Shown: positions 55,185 through 56,563 of the stretch, piece by piece
Numbering within the stretch: position 1 is the stretch's first letter
Layout: each line of letters begins with the position of its first letter
DNA from: a bacterium
Lineage (GTDB): Bacteria; Electryoneota; JAOADG01
DNA length: 64,000 nucleotides
Assembly: GCA_963681965.1 (NCBI GenBank)
Contig: OY820579.1
Span: forward strand, 2,256,835 to 2,320,834
Direction of reading: 5' to 3'
Program-made: the position numbers and the translations under genes
The notes under the pieces: model-generated
What the model was told of the DNA's origin: nothing
Seen by the model: only the letters and a program-made list of their open reading frames with translations
The model's database searches: none

Positions 55185-56563
55185 GTCCTGTGATCATTCG
55201 CAAAAAACAGAGTTGTTGCGGTGGTGCATCCACTCACCATCCGGAAAAGGGATCGTGTTGCAACAGCACCACTGCTCCCGAACAAAAAGAAGCAAGCTGC
55301 GATTGTGACAGCCAAACCGCGAAACCCGCGAAAGAACCGTGCTGCAGCGCTTCCGCAGAATCTGCTAATACCGCAGTCACATGTGGTTGCAGCAGCGAAG
55401 CTAAAAAAACTGCCCCAGAAACCTGCGCCAGCAAAGCGACCGCCAAAGAACCGGAGTATAGCTGTGGTTGCGGTAGTTCAAGTGCTGCCACCATCGACTA
55501 TGTTAGACCGAGCTTTCAGACCGGAACAATCTCGACGCCTGCCGGAGAAATTCCCCGGATTAGCACGGAACTCACTACCTGCGATCGGTACGGCACATTC
55601 AAGGCGCGATGGGATATCAACCGCATGGCGTATGCCGTGGCACCGGGATTGTACGGTATCGGCAATCCGACGCCGGAATCGCCGGTGTTGGTTACCGCGA
55701 ATTATAAATTGACGTTCGATCGTGTCCGCAAACAACTCGCGGGACGGAATTTGTGGCTGATGGTGCTCGATTCGAAAGGGATTAATGTCTGGTGTGCCGC
55801 AGGAAAAGGGACATTCGGGACGGCAGAATTGGTGAATCGGATTACTGTGACACGACTGTCTGAAATCGTCTCGCATCGCCGATTGATTTTGCCGCAACTG
55901 GGAGCGCCCGGTGTAAGCGGCTATCAGGTGTTCGAGCAGAGTGGTTTTCACGTCCAATTCGGTCCGGTACGATCGGAAGATCTTCCCACTTATTTGGATT
56001 CGAATTACAAAGTGACGCCGGAAATGCGCCGTGTACGGTTCGGATTGAAAGATCGGATTGTGCTCATCCCCGTCGAATTGGTAGGTGGATTCAATCAGGC
56101 ATCGCTGATTGCGATCGGTGCGATGCTGCTGGTTACTGTGTTGGCGGGATTCTTGACACCGGGAGGATTTACTCTGCCGCATTTACTGGCGACGGCGATT
56201 CCTGCGATTTGTATTGTCCTCGGCTCATTTGTCGGTGGTTCGGTGTTGGGTCCAATTCTGTTGCCGATTTTGCCCGGACGACGCTTCTCGATGAAAGGGG
56301 CTATCCTCGGAATGCTTATCGCGGCGGTGATCGGATTGGGTACTGGATGGATGCAAACACCGGGAGAGCATTGGGCGCAATTGGTTGCCGCCGGTTTGAT
56401 TAGTGCGGCGATCACGAGCTATACGGTGCTCAATTTCACCGGATCAAGTACCTTCACGTCGCTCTCCGGTGTCTTGAAGGAGACCCGACAAGCGCTACCA
56501 CTGCAGCTTGGGGCGAGTGTGACCGGTCTGGTGGTGTGGATTGTCGGAATGTGGATTGCATAA
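55181..56563 (+). CDS. hgcA: HgcA-like corrinoid protein (mercury methylation) with a ~100-aa Cys-rich N-terminal extension
   Basis: Cap-helix signature GINVWCAAGKG (nt ~55781-55810); C-terminal ~5-TM domain; start overlaps arsR stop (ATGA). Confidence 0.8.
   Translation: MSPVIIRKKQSCCGGASTHHPEKGSCCNSTTAPEQKEASCDCDSQTAKPAKEPCCSASAESANTAVTCGCSSEAKKTAPETCASKATAKEPEYSCGCGSSSAATIDYVRPSFQTGTISTPAGEIPRISTELTTCDRYGTFKARWDINRMAYAVAPGLYGIGNPTPESPVLVTANYKLTFDRVRKQLAGRNLWLMVLDSKGINVWCAAGKGTFGTAELVNRITVTRLSEIVSHRRLILPQLGAPGVSGYQVFEQSGFHVQFGPVRSEDLPTYLDSNYKVTPEMRRVRFGLKDRIVLIPVELVGGFNQASLIAIGAMLLVTVLAGFLTPGGFTLPHLLATAIPAICIVLGSFVGGSVLGPILLPILPGRRFSMKGAILGMLIAAVIGLGTGWMQTPGEHWAQLVAAGLISAAITSYTVLNFTGSSTFTSLSGVLKETRQALPLQLGASVTGLVVWIVGMWIA

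Follow-up and report, generated by a model that had tools for sequence, protein, structure and literature searches.

Six periodically spaced cysteine pairs in the N-terminal tail of an HgcA protein from the Electryoneota

N-terminal extensions carrying adjacent cysteines have been described in HgcA, which together with the ferredoxin HgcB methylates mercury. Haft & Gwadz (bioRxiv 10.1101/2022.07.06.499078) reported HgcA extensions with CC motifs ("packing with extra Cys residues"), found that the founding ND132 and Geobacter HgcAs extend upstream through a single UGA to a conserved PCUGP and that their annotated starts are wrong, and read the CC and Cys-selenocysteine (CU) motifs in HgcA as a sign of heavy-metal contact. 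HgcA is also listed as a CU selenoprotein in a 2026 review. Papers on the structure and enzymology of HgcAB (PMC7305189, PMC11588087) leave the N-terminal tail of HgcA out of the discussion and consider only C73, C94 and C95 of HgcB and C93 of HgcA, and published discussion of Hg(II) delivery has centered on the C-terminal Cys pair of HgcB. Here, we analyze a 64,000-nucleotide (nt) stretch of contig OY820579.1 from a bacterium of the Electryoneota (hereafter the window), in which hgcA, placed between arsR and hgcB, encodes a protein with an N-terminal tail of ~107 residues that contains six Cys pairs. This tail is a rare, enlarged and cleanly delimited form of a known HgcA feature and is not new in kind.

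We suggest, with a probability of roughly one half, that the tail is an enlarged accessory N-terminal thiol arm, with which the protein captures Hg(II) or some other thiophilic metal(loid) for its proximal Cys pair and the active site. The tail bears on the route by which Hg(II) reaches the active site of HgcAB and on whether mercury is the native substrate.

Cysteine array and translation start of the tail

The 460-amino acid (aa) product of the gene at 55181-56563 (+ strand) is, judged from its sequence, a bona fide HgcA, as the initial annotation had it, and is predicted to have mercury methylation activity. It matches the NCBIfam HgcA profile NF040863 with 425 bits (cut-off 275), aa 124-458 span positions 1-324 of the 325-position profile, and hgcB adjoins it. 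The motif NVWCAAGK (aa 202-209), the columns of which are invariant in 28 sequences, places Cys205 (55793-55795, +) in the cap helix, where it is the counterpart of Cys93, the cobalt ligand in ND132 HgcA (PMC7305189, PMC11588087). The protein is divided into the tail (aa 1-107), a lead-in strand pair (aa 108-123), and a corrinoid-binding domain followed by a five-helix membrane domain (aa 124-458). In the model from AlphaFold2 (AF2), the five long helices comprise aa 289-325, 332-360, 369-388, 394-423 and 428-459, with predicted local distance difference test (pLDDT) values of mostly 81-96. In an alignment with 27 homologs, conservation truly starts at ~aa 108, i.e., ahead of the profile; the conserved lead-in, VRPSFQTGTISTPAGE (55502-55549, +), follows the pattern W/F-x-x-G-x-x-x-T-P-A-G, and the first confidently folded strands are at aa 113-119 and 122-127.

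Counted to this lead-in, the extension is ~107 aa long, and counted to the start of the profile, 123 aa. The first 107-123 residues hold 13 of the 16 Cys of the protein and the other 338 residues hold three; the background Cys content of the long open frames in the window is 1.55%. The Cys are arranged in six CC/CxC pairs (C12/C13, C26/C27, C40/C42, C54/C55, C68/C70 and C95/C97) and a lone C82. The first pair (SCCGG) is at 55214-55219 (+) and the proximal pair (SCGCG) at 55463-55471 (+), 22 residues before the Thr of the conserved TPAG; between them lie C26-C27 (55256-55261), C40/C42 (55298-55306), C54-C55 (55340-55345), C68/C70 (55382-55390) and C82 (55424-55426), all on the + strand. The initial annotation had placed a Cys-rich extension at 55211-55480, and the Cys codons (55214-55471) fall within it; all six motifs that it listed are present, i.e., SCCGGAS (residues 11-17), GSCCNS (24-29), SCDCDS (39-44), PCCSAS (53-58), TCGCSS (67-72) and SCGCGSS (94-100). 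What it did not contain is the periodicity: successive Cys sites are spaced by 14, 14, 14, 14, 14 and 13 residues. When the tail was shuffled 20,000 times, 8 shuffles had at least six CC/CxC pairs; 117 of 20,000 had an autocorrelation at lags 14 and 28 as high as the observed peak. The pattern of Cys pairs exceeds chance. In a six-frame scan of the 64-kb window, at least three pairs per 100 aa were found only in the HgcA tail (six), in ArsR (three) and in an out-of-frame reading of hgcB (three). All 13 Cys codons of the tail are TGT or TGC; there is no in-frame TGA and hence no selenocysteine.

The tail can be written as seven 14-residue units with a loose pattern in which a K/E/P-rich part is followed by S/T/P, C(x)C and small residues. 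The units are 21% identical in protein sequence, compared to 9% in shuffles, and 40% identical in DNA sequence, compared to 28% in codon shuffles. A search of the tail DNA for a 42-nt tandem repeat with Tandem Repeats Finder (TRF) returned only a trivial 13-nt match, which suggests that the array is old or degenerate rather than the product of recent slippage.

Several features of its 5' end indicate that the Cys tail is translated. First, the ATG of hgcA overlaps the TGA stop codon of arsR (ATGA) and is preceded, at a distance of 10 nt, by the Shine-Dalgarno sequence GGAGG (55166-55170, +). Second, an in-frame TGA at 55163-55165 leaves the ATG at 55181 and the GTG at 55190 as the sole upstream starts; from codon 4 onward, there is no in-frame start until M149, whereas the invariant residues of the core begin at D135; a start at M149 would drop D135 and R148, both invariant, together with 25 profile positions. 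Third, the reading frame of the tail has 0 stops in 107 codons, compared to one to five in the other five frames. Fourth, the gene callers of ENA and Logan arrive at the identical 460-aa product. Finally, the extreme N terminus, MSPVIIRKKQ (55181-55210, +), aligns with MVVIRKKE of 13 of the closest homologs in a MAFFT alignment of 14 tails, and this match fixes the start codon. The initial annotation had named a true start further downstream as the case that would overturn it; the Cys-rich stretch would then be an untranslated leader and its annotation as coding an artefact. What speaks for an artefact is the codon-usage score of the stretch, which is indistinguishable from that of non-coding sequence (−0.08 bit per codon in the tail and +0.36 in the core); however, all five features listed above argue against it, and we attribute the neutral score to the odd composition of the tail, for which the score is uninformative. 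We regard the artefact as effectively refuted.

By alignment, the window tail corresponds to the two-pair tail seen in the nearest homologs (M-VVIRKKE-x-CCG-x5-PCSC-x22-TxxG) plus a single insert of ~75 residues between the two pairs (aa 18-92; 55232-55456, +), which consists of the degenerate 14-residue units and appears as one gap in all 13 homologs. Because the insert lies between two homologous pairs, the first pair (C12/C13), whose counterpart in the two-pair homologs is their first CCG, and the last pair (C95/C97) are inherited, and the five units between them (four pairs and C82) are, on this alignment, lineage specific. The distance from C95/C97 to TPAG is also that of the PCSC pair in the homologs and of Cys-Sec in the selenoproteins (e.g., locus L073, ...GCUPKGGTAQLSLPSLDQPFVKGSVGTRVG); thus, by its position, C95/C97 is the canonical proximal site.

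AF2, run on a 28-sequence alignment, gave a confident core, while aa 1-106 had a pLDDT of ~35 and no secondary structure; in blocks of ten residues, the mean pLDDT rose from ~37 at aa 91-100 to 53 at aa 101-110 and 95 at aa 111-120. The tail is rich in S/A/T/K/E/P, has 7.5% hydrophobic residues and a net charge of ~−1, and contains no hydrophobic or signal-peptide-like segment, so that it is not a signal peptide. In the published model of HgcAB, the corrinoid domain is on the cytoplasmic side (PMC7305189). The tail should, therefore, be a disordered cytoplasmic arm on the corrinoid domain; by our own arithmetic (100 residues at ~0.36 nm each), it could span ~35 nm when fully extended.

Thiol-bearing tails across the HgcA family

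We compared HgcA tails in three samples, i.e., the 119 90%-identity clusters nearest the query, 76 loci from GTDB species representatives, and 149 50%-identity cluster representatives. For the genome loci, pairs were counted in a fixed segment of 70 residues upstream of the core with a single TGA read through; elsewhere, the gene calls of the source were used. Tails based on the longest open reading frame (ORF) at 80 genome loci were dropped, as they were over-extended in several cases. Among the 119 closest clusters, the tail has no pair in 28, one in 66, two in 22, three in two and four in one. Of the 76 genome loci, 43 have CC/CxC, 12-13 have Cys-TGA and 20 have none. The 149 representatives of 50%-identity clusters comprise 93 with no pair, a number inflated by fragments and by gene calls cut at TGA, 32 with one, 14 with two, seven with three, and one each with four, five and eight. 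At least one CC/CxC/CU pair is thus present in 91 of the 119 close homologs and in 55-56 of the 76 genome loci: the typical HgcA (~70-75% of the sampled proteins) has an N-terminal tail with thiols, usually one or two pairs in ~30 residues. The pairless genome loci are mostly of the Bacteroidales type with a 15-residue N terminus. In the 13 aligned homolog tails, the Cys columns are conserved and the linkers are variable. The initial annotation had supposed that a Cys-rich tail is not a standard feature of HgcA, and had named homologous extensions lacking conserved Cys as a finding that would speak against it. The first supposition fails for the tail as such and holds for its size, since six pairs, ~107 aa and a 14-residue spacing are unusual; as to the second, Cys turned out to be the very element that homologous tails conserve.

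In the genome loci, the Cys-TGA codons occupy the position that CC/CxC holds at other loci and independently reproduce the published Cys-Sec motif. At twelve loci (L008, L011, L020, L031, L044, L052, L053, L065, L066, L071, L073 and L075), Cys-TGA is followed by P/G/A ~25 residues upstream of the core. These loci are mostly from Syntrophales, Desulfobacterales and other deltaproteobacterial metagenome-assembled genomes (MAGs), and the motif lies upstream of the start of their annotated or longest ORF. For environmental surveys of hgcA, this means that tail length and Cys/Sec content vary widely, that about a quarter of the proteins have no motif, and that gene calls which end at TGA or choose a downstream start conceal it.

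Tails with at least four pairs are rare, and that of the window is not unique. They occur in four of 268 other HgcA sequences, and a fifth case, L057, came from the genome loci. P0152 has eight CCG pairs in 119 residues, i.e., more than the window protein; P0237 has five CC[AS]P; P0249 has four pairs; and P0100 has CGC pairs with a 16-residue period, four by the fixed rule and a fifth (C54/C56) just beyond the cut-off. L057, from a Desulfuromonadales MAG, has five CCPP (MSDGCCPPKPKPDGCCPPPKAEAPCCPPKPVTAPCCPP...), its ATG directly follows the stop codon of the preceding gene, and TRF detected no tandem repeat at this locus. The HgcB encoded beside it (2352-2852) ends in NCDCGGSC, nearly like that of the window. 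The nearest core neighbors of each multi-pair HgcA carry one or two pairs; for instance, P0132, at 71% identity to L057, has two. Because each expansion nests among relatives with one or two pairs and the linkers are unrelated, multi-pair tails arose independently at least five times. Such recurrence points either to selection for more pairs or to a mutational process that strongly favors duplication of the motif. We found no description of multi-pair arrays in HgcA tails in the searchable literature.

These data also bear on the explanation that the array is a neutral low-complexity expansion, in which only the proximal pair, and perhaps the first, is functional, and in which five units derived from a 42-nt duplication are tolerated in a disordered tail. 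The insert is indeed one block between two homologous pairs, the repeat is degenerate, rich in S/A/T/K/E/P and neutral in codon usage, one unit is already down to a single Cys (C82), most HgcAs manage with one or two pairs and a quarter with none, and the tail on its own has no homolog anywhere. However, the units are old, with 40% DNA identity and no repeat detectable by TRF, and yet six of seven keep a pair in a fixed 14-residue register; Cys, a reactive residue with two codons, is expected to be lost early under neutrality; and multi-pair tails have at least five origins with linkers as different as CCPP, CCGG, CGC and CCAP. On balance, we consider a purely neutral origin of the additional pairs rather unlikely.

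A search with the tail alone (aa 1-113) gave no match among 5.8 billion proteins or in the PDB, where its low complexity probably suppresses scores. The di-Cys repeats of the Galaxin-like family PF24748 scored 18.1 bits against a cut-off of 28 and were rejected as a compositional likeness of CC repeats. Some HgcA gene products appear to be fused at the N terminus to other domains, the CC motif being in the linker ahead of the corrinoid domain. The fused parts are an MIP/aquaporin (P0134), an ArsP_1 permease (P0136), an ArsC-like low-molecular-weight phosphatase domain (P0215), a GNAT domain (P0140) and membrane domains with GCCGSP or CxxC runs (P0126, also L049, and P0156). The gene calls are unverified, and these fusions may be real or may be artefacts of gene calling; their arsenic theme fits the link to ArsR.

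Operon and genomic setting

Three closely packed genes on the + strand encode ArsR (54768-55184), the 460-aa HgcA (55181-56563) and a 92-aa ferredoxin (56576-56854). They look like a single operon, as a promoter-like site lies 5' of arsR and a terminator-like hairpin 3' of hgcB with nothing comparable between the genes. The promoter-like site, TTGACT-17-TATATT (54732-54760, +), is just 5' of arsR, has 10 of 12 matches in what was a consensus scan only, and is the sole strong + strand match ahead of the operon; scanning the + strand between the three genes gave no comparable promoter-like or terminator-like element. The hairpin, followed by a T run (56977-56999, +), is inside a 77-nt terminator-like module that occurs with 94% identity after the upstream gene (53671-53747) and after hgcB (56960-57036).

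Thiol richness extends over the whole operon. HgcB, which matches NF040864 with 117 bits (cut-off 99), contains two CxxCxxCxxxCP motifs; its C70 is the equivalent of C73 in ND132, and its C terminus has a CxCxxxC arrangement (TCDCGGAC; C86, C88 and C92; 56831-56851), whereas the ND132 protein ends in CC. The 138-aa ArsR-family metalloregulator (HTH_5; NF033788, 58 bits, cut-off 55) has 11 Cys, including CGCC at aa 38-41 and CC at aa 50-51 and 117-118; CGCC and CC motifs in an ArsR partner had been noted in the initial annotation. Ahead of the alpha-3 CC(V)G site, it carries a Cys-rich insert of ~13 residues, CFEECGCCETTVD, and it ends in the tail CCPDAAGTSC, an arrangement unlike the four-Cys site described for ArsR2 of ND132. 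The only close relative among 80 loci is the ArsR of L076 (2103-2357, upstream of hgcA), which is 48% identical and has a similar insert, DACSADDCCCTAD. The hgcAB-linked ArsR of ND132 is arsenic responsive. HgcA, ArsR and HgcB of the window each form a singleton protein cluster.

At L083, the contig that encodes P0008, the nearest two-pair homolog, arsR is followed by an 82-aa ORF, a gene for a membrane thiol-disulfide protein of the DsbD_TM family, hgcA, hgcB and a flavodoxin-like gene; this DsbD_TM/thiol-redox module is absent from the window operon. The arrangement raises the question of whether the tail has a redox or structural role, in which it would form reversible disulfides or an Fe-S or Zn center and possibly keep Cys205 and the HgcB thiols reduced. 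The thiol-disulfide protein and the small ORF between arsR and hgcA at L083 are in line with this role, as is Sec, typical of redox-active sites, at the equivalent position in many HgcAs. Several properties of the window protein point the other way: disulfides between vicinal Cys are strained, the tail has no CxxC and no spacing of the Fe-S type, AF2 shows no fold, and no DsbD-like gene is in the operon. Such a role is, therefore, very improbable.

The cassette is flanked on each side by ~1 kb of gene-free DNA packed with short repeats (53650-54700 and 56855-57750). A 47-nt G/T-rich unit, GAAAAGATGGGTGATGGGGAATGGGTAGTAGGTGATGGGAAAAGATG, is present six times and a 121-nt unit three times (53989, 57096 and 57217), along with several hairpin units. 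The GC content is 0.54-0.56 in the cassette and 0.42-0.47 in the flanking repeats. The flanks could mark a hot spot of recombination or insertion, or could merely be genome-wide elements like repetitive extragenic palindromes. The cassette is part of a run of genes for secreted paralogs, none of them metal related, that have beta-propeller repeats of the Ycf48/BNR type and C-terminal sorting domains of the type IX secretion system (51433-53643, 57761-59071, 59981-62191 and 62328-63734; also 10529-12295). These sorting domains, together with NuoM matches that include Eisenbacteria, KSB1, LCP-89 and Methylomirabilia at 60-63%, point to an uncultured FCB-like lineage.

Candidate functions and comparison with known systems

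Vicinal thiols chelate Hg(II), and in MerA the relay of Hg(II) by a flexible tail with a Cys pair is experimentally established. By analogy, we suggest that each Cys pair of the HgcA tail would chelate one thiophilic ion, for which Hg(II) is the obvious candidate and As(III) or another soft metal(loid) a possible one given the ArsR-type regulator. The ion would be taken over from complexes with low-molecular-weight thiols by ligand exchange and pass from pair to pair until it reaches C95/C97, the conserved proximal pair, which would hand it to the methyl-cobalamin site, to the thiols at the C terminus of HgcB, or to both. Additional pairs would increase the capture radius and the local substrate concentration, and catalysis itself would not need them. 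Metal binding by the tail, the kind of metal bound and its relay are inferences. Capture or delivery of Hg(II) by the tail, which the initial annotation had proposed, is also what the literature suggests for the N-terminal CC/CU motif of HgcA and the C-terminal CC of HgcB. The Cys pairs of MerA and of the HgcB tail have likewise been proposed to shuttle Hg(II) (PMC7305189).

Some observations weigh against a thiol arm that serves the active site. Among the genome loci, 20 of 76 have no Cys or Sec pair whatsoever, which makes the tail accessory at best, and N-terminally His-tagged ND132 HgcAB produced in E. coli methylates mercury in lysates (PMC11588087). That construct probably begins at the annotated start and so would lack the CU extension. 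As about a quarter of HgcAs do without the tail and the tagged ND132 proteins are active in lysates, we do not regard it as catalytic. In codon usage, the tail scores as neutral, and repeats of low complexity can expand in a disordered tail without selection. Moreover, the nearest HgcA is 53% identical (BLASTP) and the tail alone is unmatched, so that purifying selection on the five additional sites is not measurable. Finally, the physiological ligand may be other than Hg(II), as the hgcAB-linked ArsR of ND132 responds to arsenic.

CC and CxC clusters are hallmark motifs of metallothioneins, and the tail could instead be a metallothionein-like buffer or shield that sequesters mercury, the methylmercury product, Cd, Cu(I) or As(III) and in that way protects the Co(I) corrinoid and the [4Fe-4S] clusters of HgcB, or that holds methylmercury for export, without feeding substrate to the enzyme. 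Its 13 thiols on one flexible chain and the control of the operon by a Cys-rich sensor of the ArsR/SmtB type would suit a buffer, and in published models the thiols of HgcB carry not only Hg(II) but also [CH3Hg]+ (PMC7305189). However, the tail matches neither metallothioneins nor any other family in Pfam, NCBIfam or the PDB; with 12% Cys, compared to ~15-30%, and pairs 14 residues apart, it is far sparser than metallothioneins; one tail per enzyme makes a very small buffer; and the conserved distance of the proximal pair to the core suggests a geometry for hand-over rather than bulk storage. We, therefore, hold a buffer to be clearly unlikely.

Within the preferred reading of an arm that captures a metal(loid) for the active site, the recurrence of multi-pair tails allows a more specific and, in our judgment, doubtful proposal, namely that such tails are convergently evolved intramolecular substrate antennae, in which the number of pairs tunes how efficiently Hg(II) or the native substrate is harvested from the pool of cytoplasmic thiols. 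In that case, the capacity of uncultured lineages for methylation would be predictable from natural variants with zero to eight pairs, and the tails would offer a handle for identifying the physiological substrate of HgcAB. The six-pair protein itself amounts to a natural experimental series, as its outer pairs are homologous to those of a two-pair relative and its middle five units are a clean insert.

Among known metal-handling proteins, the initial annotation had compared the tail with MerP and MerT. The likeness to MerP is loose: the tail has no GMTCxxC or other CxxC, no match to the Pfam HMA domain and no predicted fold, and is thus not HMA- or MerP-like. The vicinal-Cys segments of MerT, MerA and HgcB are, however, real analogs. 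Like the window tail, the C-terminal vicinal Cys of HgcB (C94/C95 in ND132), the MerA tail and the CC of MerT present adjacent Cys on a flexible terminal segment, for which pick-up of Hg(II) and transfer by ligand exchange have been proposed or shown (PMC7305189); they differ in having one pair and no array, and they have no sequence relation to the HgcA tail. Metallothioneins and the His/Cys-rich tails of SlyD and HypB resemble it as disordered or metal-folded segments that hold several metal ions beside a delivery machinery; by contrast, the HgcA tail has no homology to them, has regular long linkers and, compared to metallothioneins, a much lower Cys density.

Within the HgcA family, the other multi-pair tails share with the window tail vicinal Cys pairs ~10-16 residues apart on a low-complexity N terminus and an HgcB partner; their linkers are unrelated, and the cores are 41-49% identical to that of the window in the four that aligned, while P0249 gave no alignment. 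The two-pair tails (P0007, P0008, P0013-16, P0020, P0040, P0055 and P0058) are closer. They belong to proteins 50-53% identical to the query in BLASTP (~55% in the core of P0008) and share the N terminus, the first CC(G) and the last CxC with the window protein, which adds the ~75-residue insert and five more Cys units. The closest described system is the CC/CU extension of Haft & Gwadz, which is found in the same family at the same end of the protein, with the proximal motif equally far from the TPAG lead-in and a function that is likewise inferred. Their extension has one motif, often CC, CCC or CU, in ~25-45 residues, whereas that of the window has six pairs and a lone Cys over ~107 residues with a period of 14. 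It differs from the CU form in having no selenocysteine; as the class includes CC forms, its membership stands.

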